From the NCBI RefSeq assembly GCF_044704955.1, contig NC_091984.1, positions 144,212,001 to 144,276,000 of the forward strand: a DNA stretch of 64,000 bases. The letters run 5' to 3'. The DNA is from Pristiophorus japonicus. Its lineage: Eukaryota. Below, in pieces: positions 11,431 to 50,201 of the stretch. A program made the translations under genes and the position numbers. A model generated the notes under the pieces. That model saw only the letters and a program-made list of their open reading frames with translations. It was not told where the DNA came from and searched no databases. How positions within the stretch are numbered: the stretch's first letter is position 1; the number at the start of each line of letters is the position of its first letter.

Positions 11431-13418
11431 ACCTCTACCACCTTTTCAGGCAGTGAGTTCCAGACCCCCAACATCTTCTGGGTGAAGTAATTTCCCCTCA
11501 AATCTCCTCTATAACTCTCCACAATTACTTTAAATCTATGCCCCCTGGTTTTTGACCCCTCTGCCAAGGAACAGAGGTCTGTCTTATCCACTCTATCCAG
11601 GCCCCTCATAATTTTATACACCTCAATCAAGTCTCCCCTCAGCCTTCTCTGTACCAAAGTAAACAACCCCAGCCTATCCAATCTTTCCGCATAGTTAAAT
11701 TTCTTCAGTCCAGGCAACATCCTCGTAAATCTCCTCTGTACCCTCGGTTTAATGTCTCATCCGAAGAAAGCGTACTGTTAATTAAACACAAAAGGCAAGA
11801 ACTTTGAAGTGGTGGGAATACTTGTAGAATTTACCAATATTTCACAAAGATTCCTTGTACCTTTCGCCCGCAGAGGAGAAAAATCCCTTTCTGGACTTTT
11901 AAAATAGATGGAAAAACCTTGGGAAACAAATGAGTTTAAAGGGCAGATGAGGCATGCAGGGGATAAAAGGGGATGCATTCATGGAGACCCCTGCCCCCCA
12001 CCCGCCCCCCCAGTGTTTGGACTCATAGGAAAGGGAATTTAATTTGGAAATCGATGACGATTTTGGTATCCTCGAAAAAATCTCTGAGGAAGATAGCTAA
12101 GAGCTTTACAAGTATAAGATCTCTAAAGGAGCATGTTGGAAGAGACTGCCAGAACAGAGGGTGGGGGACTGAACTCAGGAATTGGGTATTTAATTTGTCT
12201 GGGAGAATGAGTTGATCGATAACTAACAAGAACTGTGAGACATAAATATTCACTCCCTAGTGAGAATAAACACATCAAGAGCTATCAGGCTAATCACCGG
12301 AGACCATTATTGGTATGCATGAGCAAATAGACCGATAGAATTCACAGGCCCAGCCCAACGGCCCAAGAATTTAAACAATGCCAACCGGTGATTTTCCACA
12401 TTACCACATCATAATCAAATTACTGCTGAACAAGCCCGACAAATTCTGACAAAGAAGAGAGCTCAAAACTAATGAGTAGCTCCCTTGAAACAAAAAGCTG
12501 GGCCAGATTTGGTGGGAGGGAAGGAAGCCTTTTTGGGGTATATCTATTCCCAGTTTTACAAGGAAAAGAACACAAGCAGCAGGCGGTGGGGAGTGAAGAA
12601 ATGGAGTAGTGGAGAAATCTACAAGAAATCATCCAGGACCGACCGAGCACGAGGCCCATGAAATGGAAGGTTGTCAGCAACCAAATTGACAACCCAAGTC
12701 ACCACAACCAGCGAAATGACCAACCGAAACCAACTCAGCAAAAACCGAAGAATCGACATTTATTTCTACTCTACAATCTAATTCTGAATGACCAACGGGT
12801 GAGAAATTGCCTAAAAGGACTAACTAAAACTATTCCTAACCAAAGAAAGTGGGCACTTACCCCACACATCCAAAACGAGACTTACCGCATCTTCGGACTC
12901 ACCCCAACTGAAGACTATGCAGTCGGAAGTGCTCTCCTCCGTCCGGAGTTTGGCCCACACCCCAAAAACGCAATTCACCGGCAACTGTCAAAAGGGATTG
13001 GTGAGCATTGCTCCTGAACCCCCAGAGCTATAACTTAGTAAGTTCGGCGAATTGGGAGGGGGAGGCTGGGATAACTTGTGTGCATGTATCTACATTCTCC
13101 TCTTTACCCCATTTAGAGTTTAAGCGATATTTTTTTCCCAACAGGCCGTATGTTGACAATTTATTCAATGTGTTGTACCTCTCAGGGTGTATTGGTATTA
13201 CTATTCTGTGTGTGTTATTAAAGGTGTGCCCTTTTACTTCCTTTAAGACACAATAAAGCCGTACCTGCTTTCTACCTTGAAACCGATTGTCTGTTCAAGT
13301 CTGTCACAGTCCCTTCATAATTCCAGAGTCTTGAACCAAAGGTATGGGAGCGATTCAAAACCGTTCTATAAGGTCAGAAGGGAAAGCTGACACCCCACCG
13401 AAAACCACCCCTTACATA

Positions 13419-15216
13419 ATGGCGACCACGAATGGGGCAAGGGATGTGATAAGAGAGAGACTGGTCTCAGGAAAAGAAGCAAAATGGAAGAGGGGATTTC
13501 CTCGCATGTGTTTAAGAGGGTAAATGTGGCTAAGGAGTGGGTACTCGATCTATTGTATGCTGAGCATCCAGAAGATGCTGCAGCTCAATGGACCAAGAGC
13601 AAGGACAATAAAAGGTCGATAGAGAAGGTCATTTGGCTAATTTGCCTTCAGCAACAGATCCGGCTTCTCGATGAGGAGAATGAGAAATTAAAGGAAGTAT
13701 TGAAGCAGGCAGAAGAGAGGTCCAATGCAAGGGCCACAGTCGGGGAAAGGCTGTGAACAGAGGTGGGGCAGTTAAAGGAAAGTAGAGACCTCACTAAAGA
13801 AAGGCACAAAACCCAACTGGACCTTTTACAGTGTCAGATTATTGAAGCCAAGAATAGCGAACTGACGTTGCGAGAAGAGAATTCCTGCCTCACCAAGCAA
13901 GTTAAAGCATACGGGGAGAGGGTGAGAGACATTCAGGTAGCCTATAAGGTAGCCAGTACCAGGGAATTTGAGGCAGGAGACCACGGCCCCTGCCAGCAGC
14001 AGATCCAAAGCTTGAACCTTGCTCTATCCCGGGCGAAAGGCATGGTGTGCCTGATAAACCCGGGTTTGGCCCAGGAACACCTGGTAGTGCAAGCAACCCC
14101 TCAGTCACTGCCTGCAGCTCCCGGGAATGGCCTGGAGCAGCAGGGATGTCAGCCAGAGTGCGGGGCAGGCAAGGATTGCGAACTACCAACACCAGCGGCC
14201 CCGAGTTTTAACTCGGCTTGGCAGCAAGGGGAAGCGGGCGAGCCAATACAAGAAGGACCGGAACCAGGGCCAATGCACCCGGTCCGGCAGCAGAGGTTTG
14301 GCCCGCCTGACACCAATGGGGCAGCAGGACCCCTAGAAAACAGCTTCGTAGTCCCCCATGACCCCCAAAAACTGAGGGCTAAGATAGGCCACCTAAGTAA
14401 GCTCACCCAACAGGGGGATCCCTGGGTCACTTCCTGGAAGTGGAACACACGGGATATTAACGGGTGCGATGATTCGGAGCAGGCAAAGCTGTTGCTGTGC
14501 CATTCCCTCTCTGCAGACAGCAGAAAGGGGCAAAACACGTACGCTACGGTTAAGGCGGAGGTTCTAGAGGCCATGGGTATGAACGACGGGAGTCCTTTCT
14601 CCCGAGTGGAGAAAACAGTGCAGCTTTATGGGGAGACTCCACAGGTTTTCGGCGACAGGTTGTGGCCAGTCTACGAAAGGGCCTGTAGTGGGGTTCTTGA
14701 CCGGGCCCACCTGAACCCTAACGAGCTGGCTCACTGGCTCCGCAGCCTGGTGGCAAACAGCTTACCTGGAGTAAAGGCAAAAGCCGAGGTCTGGTTCGAT
14801 CCAAGAGATCCCAGAACCACCGAGGAGACAGTGGTCAGGCAGTTGACCCTGGCTTACCGGAATGGTGGATGGACAGAGGAGCTCTCCTCTAAAGGGAAGG
14901 TCCATGACACTAAACCCAGCAAGGCAAGAGAGAGTGGCATCAGGAAGGTGGGAACCCTCCCCACAAAGGGGGCGAGTGTTTTGGGTGTGTGAAAAGTGGG
15001 CACTGGAGGAAGGACTGTAGGAATCCCTGGAAAGAGACTAAGGGAAAGGCCACTCCAGCCCCAGCCCCTAAGGCCGGGGCAGGAACACCCGACACATATG
15101 AGACACTCGTAGCCACCCTACAGACACTCATAAACGGACAGGAAGCAGTAGCTATCGCAACCGGTCCAGCAGTCGGTACGGTAAAACCCTCTGCTCCAAC
15201 CCACCCAGATGCATGA
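13419..15216 (+). pseudogene. gag: gag of retrovirus-like element (coiled-coil N-terminus, CCHC knuckle), disrupted
   Basis: Heptad-rich LQQQIRLLDEENEKLKEVLKQAEE...; CFGCVKSGHWRKDC knuckle near 14977-15020; stops and frameshifts; ends TGA followed by CTA. Confidence 0.75.
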
Positions 15217-18200
15217 CTAAGGCCAGTGCAGCCTGTGTACCTGTGTTCCCTAGAGTACGATGCCTGGAAGAGACCGTGCGTTACGATGGAGGTGGAGAAA
15301 GTGAAAGGGACCTACCTGCTAGATACTGGTGCTTCCAGCACCCTTGTATATGCAGATAACCCAGCTACCTCACCTCTATCGAACGGGGTCCCGTACAGTC
15401 TAGTGGGGTTCACAGGCAATGAGCAAACTGGTTCGTTTTCCATCCCGCTCACCATTCAGTTAGGGACACTCAAAACCAAATGGAAGTGTGTCCTGATAAA
15501 ATGGGAGCAGAAGGGAAAAGGGATCCTGGGAGCTGATTTTATCATTTGCCACCAGATCCTAGTGGATCTCAGGAACCACTGTCTATGGGGAGTCATAGGG
15601 ACTGCCAGGGAAGGTGAGGTGACAGTGATCCCAGAAAAAGGGGCCAAGGGAACGTTGTGTAATGAAGCCAAAGGAGGGTTATGACTTGGAATTACTGGTC
15701 AGTAGCACCCCAGTGGAGTACCAGGCATATGTACAGGCACACCTTGCAGCCTTCGCCACCCACAAACATGACTGTGGCAGGGTAACGGGGGTGGAAGTTG
15801 GTATAAAAGGGGACCCCATGACCCGACCACAGATGCAATATAACTTCCCCAGGAAGGCAAAGGCAGACCTGACAACTGCGCTGGGATCACTGGTAGAGCA
15901 AGGGGTGTTAAGACCGATAGCTACCCATGTGAACTCACCACTGTGGCCGGTTAAGAAACCGGACAACTCATGGAGGGCCACCGTGGACTATCGATTACTA
16001 AATAAGAATATCCCTGCCTGTGCACCCACTGTAGCAGCCGTAGCGGATCTCATAGGGAGTATTCCAGCATCCGCGACCACTTTCATGGTGCTGGACATTT
16101 CAAATGGGTTCTGGTCCATTCCTTTAAAACGGGAGGACCAGTACAAGTTCGCCTTTACCTTTAAGGGCCAACAATACACGTGGAACTGTCTTCCCCAAGA
16201 CTTCCACAACAGCCCCAGCATTTTTCACCAATGCATGGCGAACTGTTTAAAGGGCTTTAGCAGACCCCAGCAGTTGATGCAGTATGTGGATGACCTGCTC
16301 CTGTTCACCGATCAGGGGGAGGAGCATGGCCCACTGCTGGCTGAGCTGCTGGAGCTGCTAAAAGAAGAAGGGTTTAAAGTAAACCCCAAGAAGGCACAGA
16401 TCAGCCAGAAGGAATTCAAATTCCTGGGGCTGACTCCGCGCTGGGGAAAGGGCCATAGATAAGGCTAGAAGGGAGGCAGTACAGGAGTTACTAGCCCCAA
16501 CACAGTGACAGGGGTAAGATCCTTTCTAGGGCTCACCGGGTACTGCAGAGACTTCATTGAGGATTATGCAGCCACCGCAGTCCCTCTGCTCAGGCTCCTA
16601 CACAAGGGTGTAGAGTGGTACTGGGATGAGGGTTGCGAGGCAGCATTTAATCAGCTCAAGAAGGACTTGCAGACCACGCCAGCCTTAGGAGCGATAGATG
16701 TAGGAAAGGAGTTTTCCTGGAGGTGGCAGTCAGCGGGGACAGTTTGAGTTCAGTGCTGCTTCAAGAGCGGCACGGCCAGCTGAGACCGGTGGTTTACTCC
16801 TCCAGGATTCTCACAGATGTGGAGAAGGGGTACTCCAACTGTGAGAGACACCTCCTACCCACACATTGGGAAGTGAAAATGTCATGTTTGTAACCTCACA
16901 TAACTGCAACCTTTATGTAACAACATTCTACACTGTATACACCTGAGAAATGCACACCTTGACCACAGGGGGTGAACTTGTGGGAGACACTCCTCACCTG
17001 GTCATCCAGGTATATAAAGGGAGGTCCCACGTAGGGTCATCACTTCTTGGTCCTGTGAATAAAGGTACAGGTCACAGAGTGACCTTGTCTCCAGTATGTG
17101 CCTCGTGTTGATTTTCTGTAATATGTAAGGACACAACATTTGGCGACGAGAAACGGGAATCAACGACTCAAGAGAATGGCCACCGGCAGCACGGAGGAAC
17201 GGTACTGTGTTGGTGAGGACTGGGACGATTTCGTTGAGAGGCTCCAGCAGAGCTTTGTCGCGAAGGACTGGCTGGGAGCGGCAGCGGCTGACAAGCGAAG
17301 GGCACATCTACTGACCAGCTATGGACCTAGGACGTACACGCTGATGAAAGACCTGCTCGCCCCCGAGAAGCCGGTGGACAAAACCTTCGAGAAGCTCAGT
17401 AAACTGATCGGTGAGCACCTCAAACCGGTGAGTAGTATACACATGGCCCGACACCGATTCTATACGCACCGATGTTGGGAAGGGCAGAGCATACCGGACT
17501 TCGTCGCGGACCTTCGGCGCTTGGCCAGCCTCTGTAAGTTCACAGAGCGGGGAGATGTTACGGGATTTCTACATTGAGGGCATTGGTCATGCCGGGATTT
17601 TTAGGAAGCTAATTGAGACCAAGGACTTGACCTTGGAAGCGGCGGCGTTGATGGCTCAAACCATCATGGTGGGCGAGGAGCCAAGATCATATACACGCGC
17701 AACTCTGCTCCCAACGTGGCGATGGAGCAGGGAGTAAACGCGATTCAGGACCCCACAGGAAGGCAAGGGCAATTCAACACCAACCAGGCAGTAAACAGAC
17801 TCTAGAGTGGGTCCACAATAGAGCCAATGGCAGGTTGAACGGACATTTACACCATCACAAGCGACATTACGTCCCGGGATGGGACCACTGACACCTACAA
17901 ACAGATTGCTCAAGAGTAATCAAAGAGACAATCAGAGTGGAATGCCTGGTAACAGCTCTTTTGTTCACAACAATCTCAGCTCAAGCTGGAGGTGCGCGGG
18001 CAGACATGCTGCGAAGACCTGCAGGTTTCAGCAATTTACCTACAGAAATTGAAACTTGAGTGGACATTTAGCCAGGATGTGCAGGAAGCCCGCAGCGAGG
18101 CTGGTTTACGAAGTGGATGAACCACAGAGGGGTCTGCAAGGCAGGGGTATGCCTGGGACACAGCAATGGACGCTGAAGGTCAGCGGGTCCAGGTGGCAAA

Positions 18201-21200
18201 CATCCACAGCTCATACACAAAAACGCCCCCTATGATGATGAGAGTACTGTTAAACAGCATCCCGGTACGCATGCAGCTAGACACAGGGGCCAGCCAATCA
18301 CTTATGAGTGTCCAACAATTCGAGAAACTGTGGCCACTCAGAGCTAGCAGACCCAAACTAAAATGCATTGACACACAATTACGGACGTACACCAAAGAGA
18401 TCATCCCAGTGCTAGGCAGTGCAATGTTGGTGGTCACACATAATGGATCTCAGAACCAGCTGCCACTCTGGATTGTCCCAGGAAATGAAATGGTCCCGCG
18501 CTTTTGGGGAGAAACTGGCTAGCCGAGATGAACTGGAAATGGGGGGGATGTGCATGCCATTTCATCTGTGGAGCGAGGTTCATTCTCACAGGTCCTACAA
18601 AAGTTCGAGTCATTATTTCAACCTGGAGTCGGGACTTTCACAGGCACCAAAGTAGTGATACGCATCACCCCGGACGCCAGACCAGTACACCACAAAGCCA
18701 GAGCTGTGCCGTATGTGATGCGGGAGAAAATTGAGAGTGAGTTGGACAGGTTTCTAAGAGACGGCATGATTTCGCCTGTTGAATTCAGTGACTGGGCAAG
18801 CCCCATCGTCCCTGTTCTAAAAACGGTTGGCTCGGTCAGGATCTGTGCCGACTACAAGGCCACCATCAACCGAGTGTCCCTTCAGGACCAATACCCGCTT
18901 CCGAGAGCGGAGGATCTTTTTGCCACGCTGGCAGGCGGCAAGCTGTTCACCAAGTTGGACCTCACTTCGGCCTACATGACCCAGGAACTGGCCGAAGACT
19001 CCAAGCTAATGACCACCATCACCATGCACAAGGGGCTGTTTGTCTACAACAGGTGTCCATTTGGCATTCGTTCAGCAGCCGCTATCTTTCAAAGGAACAT
19101 GGAAAGCCTGCTCAAATCCATCCCTGGAACAATCGTATTCCAGAACGACATCCTTATCACGGGTCAAGACACCGAGGAACACCTCCACAACCTGGAGGAG
19201 GTGCTATGCTGACTGGACTGCGTAGGCCTGCGACTAAAGAAGTCCAAGTGTGTGTTTTTTGCCCCAGAGGTCGAGTTTTTGGGCAGGTGGGTTGCGGCAG
19301 ACGGGATCTGGCCCACCGATTCCAAAATGGAGGCGATCCGTCGCGCGCCCAGGCCCGGCAACACATCAGAGTTGCGTTCATTTCTGGGACTATTGAACGA
19401 TTTCGGGAACTTTCTACTGAACTTAAGTACATTGTTGGAGCCACTACACGTGCTCCTGCGTTAGGGTTGCGATTGGTTTTGGGGGGACTGTCAGGAACGG
19501 GCTTTCAATCGGGTGCGGAACCTGCTTTGTTCCAATAAGTTATTGACCCTGTACGACCCCTGTAAGAAATTGGTTTTGACATGCGATGCATTATCCTATG
19601 GGGTTGGGTGCGTGTTGCACAGAGGAATGATGAGGGCCGACTCCAACCTGTGGCTTATGCCTCCCAAGCAGAAAGGGCATATGGGATGGTTGAAAAGAAA
19701 GCATTCGCATGTGTCTACGGGGTGAAAAAGATGCACCAGTACCGTTTTAGCAGAAGGTTTGAGTTAGAAATGGACCACAAGCCGTTAACATCCCTGTTGT
19801 CCGACAGCAAAGCTGTCAATGCCAATGCGTCAGCTCGCATACAGCAATGGGCTCTCACGCTGGCTGCATATGACTACACCATACGGCACCGGCCAGGCAC
19901 CAAAAATTGCACTGAGGCGCTCAGCAGGCTTCCACTGGCCACCACTGAGGGGGCAGCGGGGCAAAGCACAGAGATAGTCATGGCTGTCAATGCCTTTGAC
20001 AGTGCAGGCTCCCCCATCACAGCCCACCAGATCAAAACCTGGACGAACAGAGATCCCCTCCTATCCCTGATTAAGAAGTGTGTCCTGACTGGGGATTGGG
20101 CGCTCGCACACGGAGCATGCCCTGAAGAGGTCAAACCATTTCACAGACGGATGGATGAACTCTCCATCCAAGCTGACTGCCTACTATGGGGCAGCTGGGT
20201 AGTCATGCCCCAGAGGGGTTGGGAAGCATTCATCAGGGAACTCCACAGCAAGCACCCAGGCATCGTTCTCATGAAGGCCATTGCCCGGTCACATGTATGG
20301 TAGCTGGGAATTGATGCAGACCTGGAACACTGTGCTCGCAGATGCACGACGTGTGCCCAGCTGGGCAATGCCCCCAGGGAGGCCCCATTCAGCCCGTGGC
20401 CCTGGCCCACCAAGCCATGGTCACGTATTCACGGAGATTACGCTGGCCCGTTCATGGGAAAAATGTTACTCATTTTTGTTGATGCGTACTGGAAATGGAT
20501 CGAGTGCATCATATTGAATTTGTGCACAACATCCGCCACAGTGGAGAGTCTGCATGTGGTCTTTGCGATCCACGACTTGCCGAACATCCTAGTTCGCGAC
20601 AACGGCCCGTGTTTCACTAGCTAAGAATTCCGGGAGCTCATGTCGGGTAATGGCATCAAACACGTCAGGACAGCGCCGTTCAAGCCGGCTTCCAATGGCC
20701 AGGCGGAAGGTGCAGTCCAAATCATAAAGCAAGGCATGTTCCGGATTCAAGGACCCTCCATTCAATACCATCTACAGGTCTGGACCCGCTGGCCTACAGG
20801 TCCCGACCGCACTCGCTCACGGGGGTCCCGCCAGCAGAACTACTGATGAAACCCACACTAAAAACTCGGCTGTCCCTCATTCATCCAGTCTTGTCAGACA
20901 TTGTTGAGGGCAAGCGCCAGGCCCAAAATGAGTGCCATGACCGTAACTCAAAGGGGAGATGGATAGAAATTGATGACCCTGCATTTTTTCTTAATCACGC
21001 TGTGGGGCCCAAGTGGCTCGAGTTTACTATAATTGGTAAAGAGGGGAATAGGGCCATAGTGGTCAGACGCAACAATGGGCAGATATGCCGCAAGCATCTG
21101 GACCAAGTAAAAAAAAGGTTCAGCATGGACACTGAGGAACCTGAGGAAAATCATGAGATGCTGCCCACACCACTGCCAGTGAACGAGCAACAGGAACCGT

Positions 21201-23480
21201 CAGCAGCATGCACAGTCCCTGCGGTCAGCCCAGACAAGCCGGAATCACCACAGGCGACAAAGACGGATGCCAAGGCTCAACAACCAGAGCCCCAACTGCG
21301 GCGCTCCACGAGAGAGCGTCGACCGCCTGAAAGACTCAATCTTTGACCCAAAGACGCTGGAGGGAGGTGATGTCATGTTTGTAACCTTCACATAACTGTA
21401 ACCTTTATGTATCAACACTGCACACTGAATACACCTGAGAAATGCACACCTTGACCACAGGGCTGAACTTGTGGGAGACACTCCTCACCTGGTCATCCAG
21501 GTATATAAAGGGAGGTTCCACGCAGGGTCATCACTTCTTGGTCCTGTGAATAAAGGTACAGGTCACAGAGTGACCTTGTCTCCAGTATGTGCCTCGTGTT
21601 GATTTGCTGTAGTGTGTAAGGACACAACAGAAAAGATCCTTGATCTTCACGGGAAGGTCTCCTCCAACACTCCTAACCCACCACACACCTACTCAGATGC
21701 TCCTAGATGGGAGGATTAAGGACAGGACAGTGAGCAGCCAACCTAGTCTACCCAGGGAAAGCCCACAGGTCCTCCATAGAAGGGGTATGGGAGGTGAACA
21801 TTGGCCATCTGTAGGTTACACCCTACAGGCCGGGACATCTACATGGACAGGTCCAGCACGGTATCTGCTGGCAAACGACTCACAGGGTGCGGAGTCTATG
21901 ACCCAAGGGCAGGTATTGCCCTGGCAATCAAGCTCCCCAGCACCATGAGCACCCAGCTGCTGAACTGTCTGCCATAATGTACGTGGTGACCCACCCCGAG
22001 GAATTCCCTACCCCGTACATGATTTGCTCGGAAAGTATGTTCATCTGCAATTCGTGTACGGAGTACCTGGCTATCTGGTCCCATCGCGGATACACGTCCG
22101 CTGACGGGAGACCCCTGGCAATCAAGACCCTGCTGGAGAAAATCATGACAGCACTGGGGGAAGAGGGAAAGGCCCATTCAAAATCCGAACCCCCTGCAGA
22201 GGGAAACCAACAGGCTGAGAAAGTGGCCAAAGAAGGTGCCCACACGGGAAAGTTCTGGGATGCCCATGACACCGGCCGCATAGCAGCGGTGAGTACAGGG
22301 ATAGCTTTGGCCCCAGACTTAAAAACAGTTCAGGCACAGGACCCGGTCTGAAAGCTGTCCTGAATGCGCTAGCTAGAGGAGAGAGATTTGAAGGTCCGTA
22401 CGGCACAGCAGCCATTACCGTTAAGGAAGGCATGCTGTTTAAAGAGGGACAATGGGTCGTGCCACAGCAGCACCAGAGGGAATTCCTAAAACTGGCCCAT
22501 GAGGGTCCAGGAGTGGGACACCCCAGGCCTGAGACCACCTGGCAATGGGTGGAACAGGCAGGATGGTGGCTGGGACTCAGGGAGGACGTGCGCGAGTTCT
22601 CTATGAACTGCCTGGTGTGTGCTGCGAACAACCCTGACCCCCAGAAAAGGAAGGTGTCCCGAGGACACGTCAGGAGGGTAGAGGGACCATGGCAGTCACA
22701 TCGGGACTACACCGGGCCCCTAACCCACCGCCCAGGGAGGCTACTAATACTGCCTAGTCCTGGTGGACGTGTTCTCAAAATGGGTTGAAGCCTTCCCCTG
22801 CCGAACAGCCACTGCACTAGGGACAGCTAAGATTCTAGTGAGGAAAGTGTTCGCCCAGTGGGGACTCCCACAGTATGTGGAGTCGGACCAGGGGAGTCAT
22901 TTCACCGGGAAGGTAATGCAGGCAACCCTTAAGGTGCTCAGCATTGAGGGGAAATGGCACGCTGCCCACAACCCACAGTCATCAGGTATTGTGGAGCGTT
23001 TAAACCGCACCATTAAAGAAAGGAGATGGGAGACTCACCCGAAAAGTGGACAGAGTCTTATCGTTGGACCAAATGGGGATCCGAGCCAGCCAGTCAAAGA
23101 GCACGGGGTATTCCCCATACGATCATGCCGGATCATGCAGACCCCCACCCATGTCCTAGCCCCGGTGCTCACAGAAGGTCAGCTCAGAGAGGTTTGTCAG
23201 GAACCTGTTTGAACACCTCAAACAGATTCACTGGCAGGCTGCTAGTAACATGGGCAGACAGCATCGGAGTAACCGATTGCTGCTAGAACCCAGCAAACAC
23301 CACGAATGGGAGAAAGGGGACCAGGTCATGGTGAGGAACTATGCTCGGGAAGGGGTTTTTGAAGCATTATATATGGGGCCATACAGCATTGTCGACAAGG
23401 CAAGCCCGATGGTCTATGCCATAAAGCTGCCCCGCCGTACTAAGTGGTTCCACATCAACCAGTGCAAGCTGTACAACCCT
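15217..23480 (+). pseudogene. pol: pol of retrovirus-like element (PR, RT, tether, RNase H, IN), split by a nested Gypsy at 16880-21629
   Basis: LLDTGA; NSPLWPVKKPDNSWRATVDYRLLN, LDISNGFWSIPL, YVDDLL; tether 16500-16879 and 21630-21750; RNase H ~21835-22240; IN HHCC, ESDQGSHF, VERLN, YMGPY. Confidence 0.85.
16880..21629 (+). mobile_element. Full-length Gypsy (Mag/K02A2.6-like) LTR retrotransposon nested in the pol of the larger element
   Basis: 259-bp LTRs 16880-17138 and 21371-21629 (about 14 differences counted by eye); 5-bp TSD GAAAA; PBS TGGCGACGAG (tRNA-Ser-like); PPT; gag EDWDDFVERL, PR LDTGA, RT WASPIVPV/FQNDIL, RH, IN; many stops. Confidence 0.95.
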
Positions 23481-24514
23481 GGGTCAGCCAAGCACAGAGG
23501 GCAGCCGGGAGGGGTGAACCGTCCTCTGGACAGGGACCCTCCCCGACGGCGGAGGGCCCACAGAAAATGTGGCAAGCTGAGAAACCGTGCCCATAGGGGC
23601 GGTGAATTGCACTACTGGGGGGGCTGTCTCACCCATCGTTTGGGATTTGGATGCACTCCCAGTAACCCAAGCCCTGAGAAGGACCCTCCGTACACCACGG
23701 CCAAAGATATCATGGTGTACGGCATCTGAGCCTCAGTGATTCTACCCTAGGAGAAGGGTAGCCCGACAGGGAAGGCCAAAGGTCAGAAGTACAGAGGCCG
23801 CTCAGAGTAGGGACCCCCAGCCAGCCGCCTCCAGCGGTGAGGGTCTCACAGGAGCAGTAGCAACGAGCTTTCCCAGAGACAAGGGTCTCCAGCTCACCGG
23901 CTGCGGGGAAACCTTAGCATCCAGGCGGCTATCAGGCCGCACAAGGCATGGGCCTGACAGGGATTAACCAGGCCACCCGGAGACGGGTGGCGGTTGTACA
24001 TAGCTCTAATATTTAGTTTAAGGTAGCTGACTGCACGTTTTACATTTTAAGTTTAGTTTAGAATTAAGGTTAATGTTGCAGTAATGTTTAGGTGATTGTT
24101 TTGAGTTTGTCTTGTGTGTCAGCCAGCCTGAGAGCAGTTCTCAAGGGCAGGATCCAGACATTATCGGGTGATGGACAAACCTCAGGAGACCAATTGATGT
24201 TGTTTAAGTTTAATCTATGTTCTTCCTTCTGTAATGTGGTTGTACGTTGCCTACATGCTGGTGAATATAATGTAATTGAAATGAAATGTAACTGTGCTGA
24301 AATGCAATTGTAGTGATGGAACCCCCTCCAAGCTGGGAGGGTGTAAATGTAAAAAGTTTGTACCTGTAAAGGGAAAAATGTGTATCGATGGTGATGTTGC
24401 ATAAGTGTAATACATATTTTGGGAACAGTTTAGTTAACCTACGTGGAAGGTTGTCTCTTGGGAGTCAGGAACTTTGCTCAACTAGAAGATGGTATCATAA
24501 GTGGAATGGTATCA

Positions 24515-27210
24515 CATAGAAACATAGAAACATAGAAAATAGGTGCAGGAGTAGGCCATTCGGCCCTTCTAGCCTGCACCGCCATTCAATGAGTTCATGG
24601 CTGAACATGCAACTTCAGTACCCCATTCCTGCTTTCTCAACATACCCCTTGATTCCCCTAGTAGTAAGGACTTCATCGAACTCCTTTTTGAATACATTTA
24701 GTGAATTGGCCTCAACAACTTTCTGTGGTAGAGAATTCCACAGGTTCACCACTCTCTGGGTGAAGAAATTCCTCCTCATCTCGGTCCTAAATGGCTTCCC
24801 CCTTATCCTTAGACTGTGTCCCCTGGTTCTGGACTTTTTCAACATTGGGAACATTCTTCCTGCATCTAACCAGTCTAACCCCGTCAGAATTTTAAACGTT
24901 TCTATGAGGTCCCCTCTCATTCTTCTGAACTCCAGTGAATACAAGCCCAGTTGATCCAGTCTTTCTTGATCGGTCAGTCCGCCATCCCGGGAATCAGTCT
25001 GGTGAACCTTCGCTGCACTCCCTCAATAGCAAGAACGTCCTTCCTCAGGTTAGGAGACCAAAACTGTACACAATACTCCAGGTGTGGCCTCACCAAGGCC
25101 CTGTACAATTGTAGCAACACCTCCCTGCCCCTGTACTCAAATCCCCTCGCTATGAAGGCCAACATGCCATTTGCTTTCTTAACCGCCTGCTGTACCTGCA
25201 TGCCAACCTTCAATGACTGATGTACCATGACACCCAGGTCTCTTTGCACCTCCCCTTTTCCTAATCTGTCACCATTCAGATAATAGTCTGTCTCTCTGTT
25301 TTTACCACCAAAGTGGATAACCTCACATTTATCCACATTCTACTTCATCTGCCATGCATTTGCCCACTCACCTAACCTATCCAAGTCGCTCTGCAGCCTC
25401 ATAGCATCCTCCTTGCAGCTCACACTGCCACCCAACTTAGTGTCATCCGTAAATTTGGAGATACTACATTTAATCCCCTCGTCTAAATCATTAATGTACA
25501 GTGTAAACAGCTGGGGCCCCAGCACAGAACCTTGCGGTACCCCACTAGTCACTGCCTGCCATTCTCAAAAGTCCCCATTTACTCCTACTCTTTGCTTCCT
25601 GTCTGACAACCAGTTCTCAATCCATGTCAGCACACTACCCCCAATCCCATGTGCTTTAACTTTGCACATTAATCTCTTGTGTGGGACCTTGTTGAAAGCC
25701 TTCTAAAAGTCCAAATATACCACATCAACTGGTTCTCCCTTGTCCACTCTACTGGAAACATCCTCAAAAAATTGCAGAAGATTTGTCAAGCATGATTTCC
25801 CTTTCACAAATCCATGCTGACTTGGACCTATCATATTACCTCTTTCCAAATGCACTGCTATGACATCCTTAATAATTGATTCCATCATTTTACCCACTAC
25901 CGACGTCAGGCTGACCGGTCTATAATTCCCTGTTTTCTCTCTCCCTCCTTTTTTAAAAAGTGGGGTTACATTGGCTACCCTCCACTCCATAGGAACTGAT
26001 CCAGAGTCAATGGAATGTTGGAAAATGACTGTCAATGCATCCACTATTTCCAAGGCCACCTCCTTTAGTACTCTGGGATGCAGTCCATCAGGCCCTGGGG
26101 ATTTATCGGCCTTCAATCCCATCAATTTCCCCAACACAATTTCCCGACTAATAAGGATTTCCCTCAGTTCCTCCTCCTTACTAGACCCTCCGACCCCTTT
26201 TATATCCAGAAGGTTGTTTGTGTGCTACTCAGTGAATACCGAACCAAAGTACTTGTTCAATTGGTCCGCCATTTCTTTGTTCCCCGTTATGACTTCCCCT
26301 GATTCTGACTGCAGGGGACCTACGTTTGTCTTTACTAACCTTTTTCTCTTTACATATCTATAGAAACTTTTGCAATCCGTCTTAATGTTCCCTGCAAGCT
26401 TCTTCTCGTACTCCATTTTCCCTGCCCTAATCAAACCCTTTGTCCTCCTCTGCTGAGTTCTAAATTTCTCCCAGTCCCCGGGTTCGCTGCTATTTCTGGC
26501 CAATTTGTATGCCACTTCCTTGGCTTTAATGCTATCCCTGATTTCCCTTGATAGCCACGGTTGAGCCACCTTCCCTTTTTTATTTTTATGACAGACAGGA
26601 ATGTACAATTGTTGTAGTTCATCCATGCGGTCTCTAAATGTCTGCCATTGCCCATCTACAGTCAACCCCTTCAGTATATTTCGCCAATCTATCCTAGCCA
26701 ATTCACGCCTCATACCTTCAAAGTTACCCTTCTTTAAGTTCTGGACCATGGTCTCTGAATTAACTGTTTCATTCTCCATCCTAATGCAGAATTCCACCAT
26801 ATTATGGTCACTCTTCCCCAAGGGGCCTCGCACAACGAGATTGCTAATTAATCCTCTCTCATTACACAACACCCAGTCTAAGATGGCCTCCCCCCTAGTT
26901 GGTTCCTCGACATATTGGTCTAAAAAACCATCCCTTATGCACTCCAGGAAATCCTCCTCTACCGTATTGCTTCCAGTTTGGTTAACCCAATCCATGTGCA
27001 TATTAAAGTCACCCATTATACCTGCTGCACCTTTATTGCACGCACCCCTATTTTCATGTTTGATGCCCTCCCCAACATCACTACTACTGTTTGGAGGTCT
27101 GTACACAACTCCCACTAATGTTTTTTGCCCTTTGGTATTCTGCAGCTCTACCCATATAGATTCCACATCATCCAAACTAATGTCCTTCCGAACTATTGCC
27201 TTAATTTGCT
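24515..27210 (-). mobile_element. Young 5'-truncated CR1-clade LINE inserted just before the 3' LTR of the large element
   Basis: EN-RT ORF pieces 26225-27241, 25703-26137, 24974-25336, 24615-24944; (TTTCTATG)n tail at 24515-24540. Confidence 0.93.
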
Positions 27211-30200
27211 GGGGAGTGTAGAATTTACCAATATTTCGCAAAGATTCCTTGTACCTTTCCCCTGCAGAGGGGAAGAATCCCTTTCTGGACTTTTAAAATG
27301 GAAGGAAAAACCTCGGGACATAAATGAGTTTAAAGGGCAGACGAGGCCTGCAGGGGATAAAAGGGGGTACATTCATGGAGACCCCCCCCTCCACCCCCCA
27401 GTGTTTGGACTCATAGGAAAGGGAATTTAATTTGGAACTCGATGAACATTTTGGTATCCTCGGAAAAACTCTGCGGAAGATACCTAAGAGCTTTATAAGT
27501 TTAAATCTCTAAAGCAGCATGTTGGAAGAGACTGCCAGAACAGAGGGTGGGACTTCAATCAGGAATTGGGTCTTCAATTTGTCTGGGAGAATGAGTCGAT
27601 CGATAACTAACAAGAACTGTGAGACATAAAAATTCACTCCCTAGTGAGAATAAACGCATCAAGAGCTATCAGGCTAATCACCGGAGACCATTAGGGGCAT
27701 GCATGTGCAAATAGACCGATAGAATTCACGGGCCCAGCCCAACGGCTCAAGAATTTAAACACTGCTCCAACAATGCCAACCGGTGATTTTCCACATTAAC
27801 ACATTACTGCTGAACAAGCCCGACAAATTCTGACAAAGAAGAGAGCTCAAAACTAATGAGCAGCTCCCTTGAAACAAAGAGCTGGGCCAGATTTGGTGGG
27901 AGATAAGGAAGCCTTTTTGGGGTATATCTATTCCCAGTTTTACAAGGAAAAGAACACAAGCAGCAGGAGGTAGAGAGTGAAGAAATGGAGTCGTGGAGAA
28001 AACTACAAGAAATCATCAAGGACCGACCGAGCACGCTGACAGCAAGAGGCCCACGAAACGGAAGGTTGTCAGCAACCAAATTGACAACCCGGGCCACCAC
28101 AACCAGCGAAACGACCAACTGCAACCAACTCAGCAAAAACCGAAGAATCGACATTTATTTCCACTCTACAATCTACTTCTGAATGACCAACGGGTGAGAA
28201 ATTACTTAAAAGGACTAATTAAAACTATTCCGAACCAAAGAAAGTGGGTACTTACCCCATACATCCAAAACGCAATTTACCGCATCAATGGACTCACCCC
28301 AACTGAAGACTACGCAGTCCGAAGTCCTCTCCTCTGTCCGGGGTGCGGCTCGCCTAGAAGGCCAAGTGCAGCGAACCCCAAAACCGCGATTCACCGGCAA
28401 CTGTAAAAAGGATTGGTGAGCATCGCCCCTGAACCCCCAGAGCTATAACTTAGTTAGCTAGGGGAATTGTGAGTGGGGTGGCTGGGATAACTTGTGTAAA
28501 TGTATCTGCATTCTCCTATTTACCCCATGTATTCTTTTCCCCAAAGGCCGTATGTTGACAATTTATTCAATATGTTGCACCCCTCAGGGTATTGGTATTA
28601 CTATTCTGTGTGTGTTATTAAAGGTGTGTCCTTTTACTTCCTTTTAGACACAATAAAGCTATACGTGCTTCTGACTTTGAAACCGATTGTCTGTCCAAGT
28701 CTGTCACAGTCCCTTCATAATTCCAGAGTCTAGAACCAAGGGTGTGGGAGCGGTTCGAAACCGCTCATATAAGGTCAGAAGGGAAAGCTGACCCCCCAAA
28801 AACCACCCCTTACATAATACTCAATGTATCAAGACAGGAACATTGTCAACATTGATTGTGACACCATGCACTCACAACCTCCCCATAGTATGCACAATGT
28901 GAGCACCAGACCCGAGGACAGAACCCAAGGAGATGTGCCCAGCACCAATCCAGGACAATGATCAATGTAAAGCCAAAGCTGAATGTTATCAGGGCTGCTT
29001 TGCCGATGATTGCCCTGTGATCGCGGGCACCAGCAGCACACACACCTCTTGTGGGTACAGTCGTGTTGTGGTTATGTTGCTGCAGAGCACTCCACAGGCC
29101 TGCACTAATAATCCCCACAATCTCACCATGGCCCTTTGACTATTTCAATTCAGCTCTTTTTTAAATGCTGGAAATAAAAAGCTGGTCTCAGTAAAAGTGA
29201 CCACAAAGCTGTCAAATTGTCACAAAAGCCCAATTGGTTCAGTGACGTCCTTTAGGGAAGGAAACCTGCCATCCTTGCCACATAAAAGGTTACTGCCCAA
29301 GATAAGAGCTCACGGGGTTGGGGGTAATATATTAGCATGGATAGAGGATTGGCTAACTAACAGCAAACAGAGAGTCAGGATAAATGGGTCATTTTCAGAT
29401 CGGAAAACTGTAACTAGTGGGGTGCCGCAGGGATCAGTGCTGTGGCCTCAACTATTTACAACCTATATTAATGACTTGGATGAAGGGAGCGAGTGTAATG
29501 TAACCAAATTTGCTGATGTACAAAGATAGATGGGAAAGCAAGTTGTGAGGAGGACGCAAATGGATATCGAGAGGCGGAGATAGGGGTCAAAGATTTAGCA
29601 GATGGAATATAATGTGGGAAAATGTGAGGTTATCCACTTTGGTAGGAAAAATAAAAATTATTTAAATGGGGAGAGATTACAAAATGCTGTGGTACAGTTC
29701 ATTGATATCTTCCTGCAGTCTGCAGCTTTCTTCTTCATCATCAACCACACAGCCGTAATATGTTGTAATATATGTATATCTGTAAATACCTTGTTAACCA
29801 CCACAGCGCTCATCCCCTGGAGTCCCAAGGGATCCCACAATCCCTTGAGAGCACCTGTACTTAAGGAGGCCTCACAGGCTGGAAAGGCACTCTGGAGACC
29901 TGCAATAAAAGACTAAGGTCACACTTTACTTTGAGCTCACAATATCTGGTCAGACTCTTTATTCATACACTACAACAGCGAACGAACCCACCCGCAATGA
30001 TTCAGAGAACAGTGGGCATCCTGGAGAAATATTTGGAAGGAGATGATTGGGAAACCTTCGTGGAGCGACTCGACCAATACTTCATGGCCAAGGAGCTGGA
30101 AGGAGAAGCGAACGCTGCCAAACGAAGGGCGATTCTCCTTACTGCACCAACGTATGGCCTCATGAAAAATCTGCTTGCTCTAGTGAAACCCACAGAGAAA

Positions 30201-33200
30201 TCATATAAAGATTTGTGCACACTGATCCTGGAGCATCTTAACCCGAAGGAAAGCGTTCTGATGGTGAGGTACCGGTTCTACACGCGCCAAGGGATCTGAA
30301 GGCCAGGGAGTGGCGAGCTATGTCGCCGAGCTAAGACGTCTTGCAGGACATTGTGAATTTGAAGGACATTTGGAGCACATGCTCAGGGACTTCTTTGTAC
30401 TTGGCATTGGCCATGAAGTATTACTTTGCAAACTTTTTACTGTAGAGACCCCAACCTTGAGTAAAGCCATAGCGATAGCACAGGCGTTCATCGCCACCAG
30501 TGACAATAACAAACAAATCTCTCAGCACTCGAGTGCTGCGACAAGTACTGTGAATATAGTAATGTTGTTTTTGAATGATAACGTACAGGGCAGGCCTCAC
30601 ATGCCTGCAGCTGCACGTCCGCAGATGTCTCAGAGTCCACCATCACGGATGATGAATGCAAGGCCATTAACACCTTGTTGGCGCTGCGGGGGTTGTCATT
30701 GTTTCCATTCATACCGCTTCAAAGGATATGTTTGCAAGGGCTGTGGAACAATGGGACATCTCCAACGTTTGTGCAGGTGAGCTGCAAACCCTGCTAATCC
30801 TGCAAACCAGCATGTTGCAGAGAGGACAGATCCACGGCAGATCACGACAAACCTAGCCTCAGACACAGGAGGCAGAGATATATGGGGTGCACACATTTAC
30901 CATAAAGTTTCCCCCGATAATGCTGAAGGTTGAATTAAATGGACTCCTGGTGTCAATGGAGCTGGACACGGGCATGAGCCAGTCCATTATGAGCAAAAAG
31001 ACTTTTGATGAATTGTGATGCAGCAAGGCTTTAAGGCCAGTCCTGACTCCCATTCGCACTAAACTGAGAACTTATACAAAGCAACTGATTCCCATAATCG
31101 GCAGTGCTGCTGTAAATGTCTCCGACGATGGAGTGGTGCACAAGTTACCACTCTGGGTGGTATCGGGCGATGGCCCCACGCTGCTCGGCAGGAGCTGGCT
31201 GGGGAAGATACGCTGGAACTGGGACGACGTCCGAGTGCTCACGCCCGTCGACAACACTTCGTGTGCCCAGGTCCTAAACAAGTTCTCCTCGCTGATCGAA
31301 CCAGGTATCGGGAAGTTCCAAGGAGCAAAAGTGCAGATCCACCTAATTCCGGGGGCGTAACCCATCCATCACAAGGCGAGAGCAGTACCATACATGATGA
31401 GAGAGAGGGTGGAGATCAAGCTGGACAGGCTGCAATGAGAGGGCATCATTTCATCGATCGAATTCAACAAGTGGGTCAGTTCGATTGTTCCAGTCCTCAA
31501 GGGAGATGGCACCATCAAAATCTGTGGTGATTACAAAGTAACTATCAATTGTTCCTCCCTGCAGGTTCAATAGCCGCTACCAAAGGCAGATGACCTTTTT
31601 GCGACACTGGCGGGAGGAAAGGCATTCACGAAGCTGGACTTGACCTTGGCCTACATTACGCAAGAGCTGGAGGAATCATCGAAGGGCCTCACCTGCATCA
31701 ACATGAACAAAGGTCTCTTCATTTACAACAGATGCTTGTTTGGGATTCGATCAGCCGCGGCGATATTCGAGAGAAACATGGAAAGCTTACTGAAGTCAGT
31801 CCCACACACCGTGCTCTTCCAGGACGACATCTTAGTCACAGGTCGGGACACAGTCGAACATCTGAAGAACCTGGAGGAGGTTCTTATGCGACCCGGGTTA
31901 AAATGCTCGAAGTGAGTTTTCCTGGCGCCTGAAGTGGAGTTCCTGAGGAGAAGAATCGCGGTGGACAGCATCAGGCCCACCAATGCGAAGACGGAGGCAA
32001 TCGAGAACGCACCAAGGCCACAGAACGTGACAGAGCTGCGGTCGTTTCTAGGACTCCTGAACTAATTTTGTAACTTCTTACCGGGTCTCAGCACACTGTT
32101 AGAACCAATGCACTCTTTACTGCATAAAGGAGGCGAATGGGTATGGGCAAAAGCCAAGAAAATGCCTTTGTAAAACTTAGAAAACTGTTACAACACAAGC
32201 AATTTGTTTGAGCATATGATCCATGTGAGTGTTTGGTGTTCGCATGCGATGCATCGTCATGCGGTGTTGGTGTGTATTGCAACAAGCTAATGAATCTGGG
32301 AAAATTACAACCGGTTGCTTATGCATCCAGAAGTCTGTCTAAGGCTGAGAGGGCCTTCAGCATGACTGAAAAAGAAGCGTTAGCGTATGTTTATGCGGTA
32401 AAGAAAATGCATCAATATCTGTTTGGGCTCAGATTTGAATTGGAAACTGACCATTAGGCACTGATATCCCTCTTGTCTGAAAGTAAGGGGATAAATACGA
32501 ATACATCAGCTCGCATCCAGAGATGGGCGCTCACGTTGTCCACACACAATTACACCATCCGCCACAGGCCAGGCACAAAAAATTGTGCCGATGTTCTTGT
32601 AAATGTAGATTCTTTTCTCTCAATCTGGTTCAGTAAAATTACTGAGTCGAATACCTCTTGTGCTTTGAACAAAGCAGTCTTTATTTTACCGGCCGGCAAG
32701 ACTTATCAGACAGAGGATATATTCTCTCGATCGAGCGTACACACTCCCTACGGATAAGTGAAGTTACATCGTAAAGCGACAACAGTTATACATTCTCGGC
32801 AAAAGATAACAAGATAGGGCTAGAGTGACATCCTAGTTCAACCTATCTCTTTTGGTCCCTCTTTCCCTTTGTCCACTCATAAGCCGACCTAAGTATGGTC
32901 TGATTTTAAACAAAGACCTTCTGTTAATGTTTCAAGTTAATAACATGATTTAATAAGACCTTGAGGTTTTTCTGCAAGCTGTGGGTTTTGTTTCAATATG
33001 TGTTAGTGTTGTAACATTTCGCAGTCTCGAGTCCGAGATGTCATGGCTATTCCTCCATGAATTCTTTGTTAGCTTATACTGTCCCTATACAATTCCCACG
33101 TTCTCAACTTCAATATCTCTATACATTTTAAACATTCACATTGCCCCCTTTTATCATTCCACGATAACACTTAGGATCATTCTAGGAGTAAAATGTATAG

Positions 33201-33580
33201 GGAATGTGAACACACCTAATATCCAGAAAAGTTCCCATTTTGCGCATAAACATAAGACATGTAGCTCTCGTCTCTGTCTCCCCTCCCATGCACCGAAACT
33301 GTCATATATCAACACTAGTATACAGACTGTGGCATACAGACAGCTTCATCTTATCGCTCAGGATTCAGATAAATAGTCCAATTATTTTGCTGATTAAAAG
33401 AGTTCAGTTTTCCCGTCTCTCTTCTCAGGTCACCGTCGGTGTAGCTGGCTATCTATCACTACGGGTAAAAGTTCAAACTGGTCCACGTTTCAATTAGGAT
33501 GCCAACGGCCTTGTTCAGCTATGGAGAAGAGGAAGTCTGGAACAGAAACAGGAGTTAGAATAACCAGTAAAATAGGTTCG

Positions 33581-35020
33581 TTAGAGGGTGGTGAGCTTGC
33601 AGTGGTGCAGGTGAACCCAGGCACTTTTCCCCTCAACCTTGGCTGCAGTGGGGGTAGTGAGTAACACCTGAAAAGGCCCCTCCCATTATGGCTCTAATCC
33701 CTTCCGAATCCATACTTCCCTGATGCCACGAGGGACAATTCGGGTAAAACTGGAAGGTCGAGGTGAGCATCTTGAACCTGGTTGTGAACTAGTCGCAGAG
33801 CCTGAGTCAGAGAAAGAACATAGGTGGTCATCAGTCGAGCTGAGATCTCATATCTAGGAACAATTTCCCTCATTAACACCTTAACAACAGTTTGAGCCTT
33901 ATTGTCCAGGTTAGGGTAGGCTTCAATCCATCTGCTAAACACATCTACTATTACTAACACATATTTGTAATACTGAACTTTTTGCAACTCAATGTAGTCC
34001 AACTGAAATGTCTCAAAGGGACCTTCGGGTAGGGGCGTTTTACCCCAATCACAGGGGACTCCCTTCCCTGGATTATGTTGCTGGCCAACCAGGCAACGAC
34101 TACTGATGTTCTGGGTGAGCGCCTGGAGTCTAGGGTGCCACCAAGTAGCCAAAAGTGTGTCACTCATGGTCCTTGCTCCACAATGAGTAGCAAAATGCAT
34201 ACATTCAATAACCCATAGAGCCAACTTATCAGACATGCAAGTCTGTTCCGCGGGAGTGGTCCAGAGTTTAGAAACATTGTCATAAGTACATGCATAATAT
34301 TTCCACAACAGTTTATCTTTTTCAGGAGCGTCCTCCTGTGCTTTTATAACATCTTGGATGGTTGGCATTGGTTTTTCCGAGGCTAACTTATCCTTCGCAG
34401 GATTTTTAGTCTGACTCATAATTTTGGGCACTACCATCTGTTGGTCACGAGAGGCCTGTTTGCCCTCTTGGTCAGCACAACGATTCCCTATATCAACCAG
34501 AAAATTTCCGGTAGTGTGGGCAGTACATTTGACAATGGCAATGCGTTTGGGGAACATGAGGGCTTGCAACAAATCAGATACGAGCTGTTTATGAGATATC
34601 TCATTCCCCTGTGAGGTTAGGAATCCCCTATTTTTCCATAATTGTCCGAAATCATGGGCCACCCCAAAGGCATACCTAGAGTCGGTATAGATATTGACTT
34701 TGAGATCTTTGGCCAAGATACAGGCTTGGGTGAGGGCGAATAGTTCAGCTTGTTGAGCAGAATAGGCAGTTTCAAAAGCGGCAGATTCCAAGACCTGATT
34801 CTCCTGGTTTACTATGGCGTATCCTGAGATTCATGTACCTTCTGGATTAATTCCATCAACATACATAATATAGTCTGGATCTTCGATTGGTACATCAACA
34901 AAATCTTCCCTGATGTGGCCTCTTAAATTAAAGATAAACAATCATGACTGGGTTCTTCCTCGTCTTGGGGTGGCTCAGTAAGAAAACAGGCCAGATTAAT
35001 TGCAGTACAGTGACGAAAGG
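33581..35020 (-). pseudogene. pol: ERV RNase H and internally deleted integrase
   Basis: SAQQAELFAL, IYTDSRYAFGVAH, KCTAH, GNRCAD; MHFATHCG; QLDYIEL, VDVFSRWIEA; [16 protein letters not shown]...WVHLHHCK. Confidence 0.85.
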
Positions 35021-35950
35021 TCAGTTTAGGATTGCCTGTGATTTCAGTGGGTTCTGTCGGAGAGAGGGCCAGTCCACATTGCCCTGCACTGGGATCTCAA
35101 TCGGATCAATGGGAGTATAACCCACTTGGGAGGGGTCCTCTGCCCACACATGAGGATCCACATAGTCAGGTATGTCCGAGCCAGTATGATGCTGTAGAGT
35201 CGTTGAGACCTTCTCGGGGTCCCTATGAAATTGAACTGTTCGGCCATGTTTTACGATTTGCACATCCCGGCTGGTCGGGTCAGCCTCATCTATGGCCTTG
35301 CATACCATAACTCCCAAATCTTTAGCATGGTGAGGGGCTAATACTTCACGAGCAATATGCGGTGCCATTGTTAGGGGCTGTTTCCACAGATTCTTATCCA
35401 CTTCCACAAAATCTGCCTCTCTTTCCAGTCCAGTCACTCTAGCCCTTAATAGAATTCCCTTCACTTCCCCTTCGTGATCCTGATAAAAGTTCTGCAGGTC
35501 CTGATTCTTTCCACTGGGATCGTATGCTAGGGTCACATGATAGGGTGCCTGCGGCAGGTCCAGAGACCACCACTGAGGGGTTCTAGTGGTATAATACTGC
35601 CGCTTAAGGGTTTCCTGTTTTACAATAATCCCATCATCTCCACACTCCAAATGCAACTGGAATTTGCAGAGGAGGTCTCTAGCCATCAAGTTACAGTCCA
35701 GATTGGTTGTGATAACAACTCGATGTTCCACCGATTCTTCCTGGTAACCCATTTTAACCGGTTCTGACACTGGGAATGTTGAGATTTGTCCCAGGAATCC
35801 TGAAAGTTCCTGTGTTTCAGTAGAGGCAGGGAGTTTAAGCTTTGATTGTACAGAAGACATGAAGGCTCCCGTATCTATCAAAAAGGGTTGCCACTCATTC
35901 AGAATGGGTTCGTCGTCCGGGGAGGATCCCTGCACAATCAAGCTGCGTAG
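35021..35950 (-). pseudogene. ERV protease + 2H-phosphoesterase-like domain + first residues of RT
   Basis: 306-aa open frame: FLIDTGA, NLMARDLL, PYHVTL, APHIAR, then VWAE...VG...PSLRQNPL (RT start). Confidence 0.75.
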
Positions 35951-37331: not shown

Positions 37332-37429
37332 TATCGTATCATTACGCATTCACGTAGTCGTGCGATTTAAACAAACTTAAAACGAATAGACTTTACTGAA
37401 AAACAGACTTTACTGAAAAACAGACTTTA

Positions 37430-37830
37430 CTAATCTAACACACAGCCGCGTCGCCCCGTGGCTCGCGTCTCCACGCGATTCCACCGAAACATACTTGACA
37501 AACTCAACATATAGCCACGTCGCCCCACGGCTCGCGTCTCCACACGATTCCACCGAAACACGCTTGACAAACTCAACACACAGCCGCGTCGCCCCGCGGC
37601 TCGCGTCTCCACTCGATTCCACCGAAACACGCTTGACAAACTCAACACACAGCCGCGTCGCCCCGCGGCTCGCGTCTCCACGCGATTCCACCGAAACACG
37701 CTTGACAAACTCAACACATAGCTGCGTCGCCCCACGGCTCGCGTCTCCACGCGATTCCACCGAAACACGCTTGACAAACTCAAAACACAGCCACGTCGCC
37801 CCGCGGCTCGCATCTCCATGCGATTCAACC
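37430..37830. repeat. 69-bp CpG-rich tandem repeat (~6 copies) in the ERV 5' leader
   Basis: Unit CCACCGAAACACGCTTGACAAACTCAACACACAGCCGCGTCGCCCCGCGGCTCGCGTCTCCACGCGATT; a CG-rich low-complexity tract follows at ~37890-38105. Confidence 0.9.
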
Positions 37831-49874: not shown

Positions 49875-50201
49875 ATACACAGCCCCACCTCCTGTACTGA
49901 CTCACCCCACAGTTATATATAATATATAATAATGGACACACAGCCCCACCTCCTGTACTGACTCACCACACAGTTACATACAATATATAATAATGGACAC
50001 ACAGCCCCACCTCCTGTACTGACTCACCCCACAGTTATATATAATATATAATAATGGACACACAGCCCCACCTCCTGTACTGACTCACCACACAGTTACA
50101 TACAATATATAATAATGGACACACAGCCCCACCTCCTGTACTGACTCACCACACAGTTATATATAATATATAATAATGGACACACAGCCCCACCTCCTGT
50201 A
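49875..50201. repeat. 61-bp minisatellite (5 full copies + partial) directly 3' of the V RSS
   Basis: AGCCCCACC recurs at 49881, 49942, 50003, 50064, 50125, 50186; two alternating variants. Confidence 0.95.

Follow-up and report, generated by a model that had tools for sequence, protein, structure and literature searches.

Within a 64,000-nucleotide stretch of the genome of the shark Pristiophorus japonicus (NCBI RefSeq assembly GCF_044704955.1, contig NC_091984.1, positions 144,212,001 to 144,276,000 of the forward strand; hereafter the window), we evaluated a retrovirus-like provirus at 11823-28814 that a preliminary description had put forward as a candidate lokiretrovirus. Our analyses do not bear out that assignment. 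The provirus is a dead copy, with gag, protease, reverse transcriptase (RT), tether (a degenerate Gypsy-type RNase H), second RNase H and integrase all disrupted by stops or frameshifts, and by its Pol sequence its family sits within the deep-branching true retroviruses, on the retrovirus side of the split between lokiretroviruses and retroviruses. We consider it probable that this is an env-less endogenous retrovirus (ERV) family, likely of the known snakehead retrovirus (SnRV)-like, class III grade, which likely lost env from an enveloped ancestor and likely amplified inside cells to hundreds of copies.

For phylogenetic placement, 307 proteins were reduced to 79 rows including the window by a coverage and score filter (quick tree) and then to 50 rows for a careful RT tree, with 35 rows used in approximately unbiased (AU) tests on RT and 29 rows in a whole-Pol tree spanning RT to integrase. 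Among these rows, P0221 is SnRV (differing from the published SnRV RT string at a single compared position), P0185 is near-identical to the published Loki-Pma and anchors the lokiretrovirus rows, and P0280 is named WEHV1. The RT tree recovered Gypsy (100/99), lokiretroviruses (100/99) and retroviruses including the window (99/98), and joined a 14-row group of window, frog, coelacanth and other rows with SnRV (92/81); in the whole-Pol tree the family again fell with the retroviruses (100/98), as part of a polytomy at their base. AU tests rejected the window with lokiretroviruses on RT (p = 0.0047), the whole group with lokiretroviruses on RT (p = 0.014), the family with lokiretroviruses on Pol (p = 0.007), the family with Gypsy on Pol (p = 0.009) and the window with class I on RT (p = 0.0006). 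Scored against one RT query, SnRV came first among identified viruses (204 bits, about 46% identity), followed by the best lokiretrovirus (152), foamy virus (146), an ERV-L-like element (140), WEHV1 (129), murine leukemia virus (106) and Ty3 (90).

Beyond identified viruses, the closest protein was a Pol at 81% identity, and a viral-contig scan with the window RT returned no relative. The closest named proteins were frog and coelacanth ERV Pols (Pyxicephalus, Rhinophrynus, Aquarana, Xenopus and Latimeria, labelled 'NYNRIN-like' or 'Gypsy integrase-like'; 47-51% identity over RT to tether), which come from different hosts and share the family's domain order with two RNase H domains. One of them (P0047, Pyxicephalus) continues past the integrase into a signal-like stretch and an immunoglobulin-like domain recognised by eye, through either capture of a host gene or fusion in the annotation.

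Given these placements, we rejected a lokiretrovirus that had lost its env, the first in a cartilaginous fish, as very improbable: RT, the marker by whose position lokiretroviruses are defined (Wang and Han 2021, PMC7947760), excludes the family in trees and AU tests alike, and the lokiretrovirus RT signature of the published alignment (CPFGY.NSPAEF) is missing from the window RT, which reads LPQGFHNSPSIFH. Querying the shark's own genome with a lokiretrovirus RT gave 45% identity at best, with 12 of the 12 top loci checked belonging to the window's family (150 of 146,970 candidates scored), and an earlier lokiretrovirus protein query, mainly integrase, returned more distant members of the window's own group. 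In essence the RT lies among known class III-type ERVs, a placement that the preliminary description had itself set against its proposal. What favours a lokiretrovirus is the dual RNase H, the similarity of tether, integrase and, weakly, second RNase H, a coiled-coil Gag of the kind also reported from the lokiretrovirus relative BHIKHARI, and the small host sample, three chondrichthyan genomes having been screened and none found positive (PMC7947760). Another lokiretrovirus marker is an integrase close to CGIN1/NYNRIN; the family's integrase scores lean towards lokiretroviruses, in an integrase tree mostly without resolution. Tether and second RNase H are, however, common to all retroviruses and therefore not diagnostic. 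The family further differs from lokiretroviruses in its gag/pol stop, the lamprey element being given as a single Gag-Pol polyprotein (PMC7947760), and in that no smc gene was seen.

Features shared with SnRV and SnRV-like ERVs (clade Huo; elephant shark CmiERV lineage I) comprise a coiled-coil Gag, one zinc knuckle, an in-frame gag-pol stop, a GPY integrase and aquatic vertebrate hosts. SnRV is described as having a coiled coil and a single zinc finger in Gag, with gag and pol in one frame and suppression of the stop between them (PMC2717909), and its relatives, assigned to clade Huo (Xu 2018, PMC6001957) and also treated in PMC12193657, occur in elephant shark (PMC4422223) and form the main ERV class of the coelacanth (Hayward 2015, PMC4977317); in cartilaginous fish most RTs belong to clade III, with 2843 loci counted across 6 genomes (PMC11089739). 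Compared with SnRV, the family has neither env nor accessory open reading frames, ends gag in UGA-CUA where SnRV is reported to have UAGGGC, and carries a tether and integrase far less diverged from those of lokiretroviruses.

Several results weigh against the SnRV-like placement. The RT grouping with SnRV is weak at 92/81 and was not starred, it is absent on whole Pol, where SnRV adjoins class I (93/88), and the AU test on Pol rejected the family group with SnRV (p = 0.0012, for a group named after the trees had been seen). Tether scores reached 41-64 bits against lokiretrovirus rows versus 19 against SnRV, integrase scores 192-202 bits against the three full lokiretrovirus rows versus 122 against SnRV, and the RNase H tree united the family with lokiretroviruses at 83 on two long branches, the RNase H and integrase trees being mostly without resolution. 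The window with Gypsy was not rejected on RT (p = 0.062), and neither foamy nor class II, Odin or named ERV-L rows were part of the trees.

These points bear on another reading, that of a separate slow-evolving lineage, the first branch among retroviruses between lokiretroviruses and the rest, with the same life cycle and with its SnRV likeness made up of old shared features. Placing the group as the first-branching retrovirus lineage was not rejected (RT p = 0.27, Pol p = 0.16), so that of the earlier phrase 'loki-like or other basal retrovirus-like lineage' the second half remains tenable and the first does not; the Pol polytomy with SnRV apart, the lokiretrovirus-like tether and integrase, and a sister-subfamily env that resembles lamprey lokiretrovirus Env by eye (see below) would also fit. 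We nonetheless regard such a lineage as unlikely, since the best RT trees unite the family with SnRV, and Gag layout, primer binding site (PBS) and gag-pol stop fit SnRV as well; moreover, the SnRV-like clade has already been called a possibly ancestral branch (Hayward 2015, PMC4977317), so the two may be the same known group. For the SnRV-like placement that we favour, slow evolution and retained ancestral states suffice to explain the tether and integrase scores without lokiretrovirus membership, and because both domains score nearer to lokiretroviruses than to SnRV, the lineage may retain ancestral features.

We give hardly any credence to a foamy-like ERV or to a Gypsy retrotransposon carrying an additional RNase H. 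Spumaviruses express Pol in a manner that differs from an in-frame gag-pol stop. Foamy RT was the best solved-structure match, and long terminal repeats (LTRs) of great length with a 4-bp duplication would suit a foamy virus, but the stop and the zinc knuckle are unlike spumaviruses, whose Gag is described as lacking the knuckle (PMC2717909), and SnRV scored 58 bits above foamy virus; we rejected foamy viruses and foamy-like ERVs on the knuckle, RT having been compared with foamy virus by score alone. Although the window with Gypsy survives the AU test on RT alone, Metaviridae were rejected on the catalytically dead tether, the second RNase H, an RT outside the 100/99 Gypsy clade and the Pol AU test. 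ERV4, described with no zinc finger, no GPY/F and a 5-bp duplication (Chong 2014, PMC4299795), was rejected since the family has zinc knuckle, GPY and a 4-bp duplication.

Self-comparison of the window revealed one long repeat pair bounding the provirus, and its features are as follows (window coordinates):

11819..11822, plus strand: left target-site duplication TACT; the family duplication is 4 bp
11823..13416, plus strand: 5' LTR, TG...CA, from self-comparison of the window
13420..13437, plus strand: PBS for tRNA-Arg, matched to host tRNAs
13484..15216, plus strand: gag, with N-terminal coiled-coil-like region, putative capsid region and one CCHC knuckle (about 14975-15025); a stop and a frameshift interrupt the frame
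15214..15219, plus strand: UGA-CUA context at the end of gag, where readthrough into the in-frame pol is predicted
15217..15684, plus strand: aspartic protease, LLDTGAS, Pfam match
15629..16747, plus strand: RT and connection, YVDD; frameshifts and stops past the core
16730..16879, plus strand: tether (degenerate Gypsy-type RNase H), first part
16880..21629, plus strand: nested Gypsy LTR retrotransposon, foreign to the provirus, with 260-bp LTRs 95% identical
21630..21836, plus strand: remainder of tether, with linker; most other copies are about 76 bp longer here
21837..22245, plus strand: acquired (second) RNase H; in the window copy frameshifted and changed at catalytic positions
22459..23729, plus strand: integrase with HHCC, DDE core, GPY near 23376 and a long C-terminal tail; frameshifted
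23730..24515, plus strand: short non-coding stretch at the env position of the sister subfamily; no env remnant detected
24516..27210, minus strand: nested CR1 LINE (long interspersed nuclear element) at the polypurine tract, foreign to the provirus
27211..27216, plus strand: polypurine tract remnant
27217..28814, plus strand: 3' LTR
28815..28818, plus strand: right target-site duplication TAAT, one mismatch to the left

The LTRs have the length of about 1.6 kb that had been proposed, the 3' one ending at 28814, and share 92.3% identity across 1553 ungapped columns; their Kimura two-parameter (K2P) distance of 0.082 translates into about 19 or 186 million years under a mammal or an assumed shark rate (PMC4422223) and is too rate-dependent for dating. 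A TA-ended LTR with a 5-bp duplication was dropped, other copies showing 4 bp. Open frames of 135-141 codons in both LTRs (12610-13017 and 27981-28406) had no Pfam match, and the middle of the LTR is highly variable among subfamilies.

To set the window copy beside its relatives, we searched the shark's own 5.9-Gb genome with a 751-bp query piece, which gave 3600 first-look candidates, 40 of them scored, and fetched both sides for 20 of the 30 loci returned. The RT, RNase H and other motifs quoted in the preliminary description are all present in the window, and its dual RNase H and GPY integrase were borne out; Pfam matches comprise RVT_1 (E = 5e-34), protease (E = 1.5e-4), H2C2 and rve. The second RNase H of the window copy reached 24.7 bits against RNase_H PF00075 (E 2.9e-5), just below the 25.8 cut-off, and that of another family copy 65.9 bits. 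Across 20 copies, YVDDLL was counted in 18, the RNase H pattern DGS in 15, AELSA in 16, CSDS in 15, QQAD in 19 and GPY in 15, the window copy itself being without three of the four RNase H patterns. The tether, said earlier to lack its first catalytic Asp, is indeed degenerate, but the alignment shows that all three acidic catalytic positions kept by Gypsy RNases H are gone.

Upstream, a positive heptad scan and a zf-CCHC match (Pfam E = 0.05) agree with the coiled-coil Gag with one CCHC knuckle described before. Zinc knuckles were the only matches of Gag among PDB sequences, and an AlphaFold model of the capsid region (mean predicted local distance difference test score, pLDDT, 40) was too poor to use, so that the capsid fold stays putative. 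That Gag starts at the PBS holds for other copies, in which the gag frame begins with an ATG that overlaps the PBS; in the window copy this ATG lies in another frame, and the earliest ATG in the gag frame is found near 13484. In many copies the PBS-overlapping ATG precedes a second ATG by 24 codons, with a leader of at most about 65 nt. A PBS was recognised in 16 of 20 copies, half of which (8/16) fit host tRNA-Arg(CCG) at 18 of 18 nt; most other copies fit this tRNA, whereas the first 13 nt of the window PBS fit host tRNA-Arg(TCG). A switch of primer from one tRNA-Arg isoacceptor to another is likely. SnRV, in Hart's 1996 account, is reported to have an arginine tRNA PBS too.

The gag-pol junction could be located in 17 of 20 copies, by a search pattern that itself included the stop. 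Pol continues there in the frame of gag, and the junction reads TGA in 16 copies, TGACTA in 14 and TGACTAG in 10. Gag thus ends in a predicted readthrough context, UGACUA being type II (PMC13517186); in the available text of that 2026 review, UGA-CUA is listed for alphaviruses and host genes and is not among the retrovirus examples.

Family size and env content were evaluated next to these structural features. A 16-nt LTR end had 918 exact genome matches versus 7 for its reversed control, which is no copy count but indicates at least hundreds of insertions. Target duplications measured 4 bp in the 11 copies with both flanks readable (7 exact, 4 with one mismatch), and LTR distances spanned 0.013-0.095 in nine measurable copies. 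The absence of env after the integrase, noted earlier for the window, extends to all 30 family copies examined: none was found in 20 of 20 copies, with the 3' LTR about 1 kb past the integrase, nor in 10 of 10 further copies from another search, two of which hold about 550 extra bases without a long frame.

By comparison, ten more distant loci, whose integrase core is 68-84% identical in protein, yielded env-like pieces 3' of the integrase in 7, six of them long and every one broken; the preliminary description had suggested searching fuller copies for an env like the F protein of Mononegavirales. The LTR start of one env-bearing locus is 85-91% identical to that of the window. Because this broken env sits in a sister subfamily of the same genome, we read the absence of env as secondary loss. 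The recognisable parts of the sister env are a basic site for cleavage, a hydrophobic stretch resembling a fusion peptide, heptads, an ectodomain that is long and contains cysteines, and a membrane anchor; its layout and several motifs follow lamprey Loki-Pma Env by eye (supplement of PMC7947760), the F fold being computationally unconfirmed: no Pfam or PDB sequence matched, and an AlphaFold model (pLDDT 32) was too poor, its fold search giving no match at E<=0.001. Since foamy Env also carries the F fold (PMC11468914), an F-like env is no lokiretrovirus hallmark. Database relatives of the sister env were found in sawshark (91%) and skate (57%), which by itself points to a cartilaginous fish as host; a sawshark 'Niban 1-like' predicted protein (P0345) equals the sister env over its first 250 residues and then continues into a Niban-like part, through either exon capture or misannotation.

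Drawing these features together, we propose that RNA would be driven by the LTR, that Gag would arise by normal termination and Gag-Pol by UGA-CUA readthrough, and that reverse transcription would be primed by tRNA-Arg, with the acquired RNase H cutting, the tether serving as a structural link and the integrase making the target duplication. An enveloped ancestor, like the sister subfamily, would have lost env, and integration in germ cells without leaving the cell would have produced the amplification, the window copy later receiving a Gypsy element and a CR1 and being duplicated afterwards along with the DNA around it. It is established retrovirus biology that RNA is driven by the LTR, that a tRNA primes reverse transcription, that the acquired domain supplies the RNase H activity while the tether connects, and that integrase makes the duplications. 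IAP, MusD and MERVL are likewise env-less amplified ERVs, alike in env loss and high copy number and unrelated in lineage, so that the analogy is one of mechanism only. As an alternative to intracellular spread, and a further point against the proposal, env-less copies could have been mobilised in trans by the sister's Env.

The later history of the locus can be followed in its nested elements, both of which, the Gypsy insert (16880-21629) and CR1 (24516-27210), lie where the preliminary description had put them. The Gypsy insert interrupts the tether, with a 5-bp duplication (GAAAA) at its ends, and its LTR K2P of 0.048 versus 0.082 for the host provirus makes it the younger. The provirus together with this insert was found at four further loci, 94-99.5% identical (at 144-147 Mb of one contig and on one other contig); such near-identical loci with the same insert indicate that the window copy was duplicated together with its surroundings, the closest of the four possibly being an assembly duplicate. 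Elsewhere, the window holds a decayed Gypsy-like element akin to the nested one (29865-32585), three tandem arrays (37418-37855, 48174-48613 and 49877-50201) and, for the rest, largely CR1 fragments. A second provirus on the minus strand (32598-39859) has 545-bp LTRs 99.4% identical and class I (epsilon/gamma-like) remnants, namely of gag, protease, RNase H and integrase, its frames broken despite very young LTRs.

We also entertain, with considerable doubt, that the shark, frog and coelacanth group might be the most conservative surviving retrovirus lineage, arising right after the lokiretrovirus split, with lokiretrovirus-like tether, RNase H and integrase and an F-type envelope in its env-bearing members. 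If true, features held to be 'unique' to lokiretroviruses would date back to the ancestor of all retroviruses, the orthoretroviral versions of env, RNase H and integrase would be later replacements, and mammals could owe their NYNRIN gene, whose source lineage the publications consulted do not name, to this group.

A shark lokiretrovirus would have filled a host gap, and the window provirus is none. In the open literature searched, with Repbase and subscription journals outside the search, we found no description of this particular family. The family itself is new, the basal SnRV-like class III grade is already known, including in cartilaginous fish, and the group may, with lower probability, be a distinct early branch. 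What the genome offers is a well-preserved, high-copy family in a basal retrovirus grade that has been sampled poorly, its env-less and env-bearing subfamilies coexisting in one genome, and many copies for testing whether the lokiretrovirus-like tether and integrase and the F-type env are traits of ancestral retroviruses, as well as a fish case of env loss with amplification.

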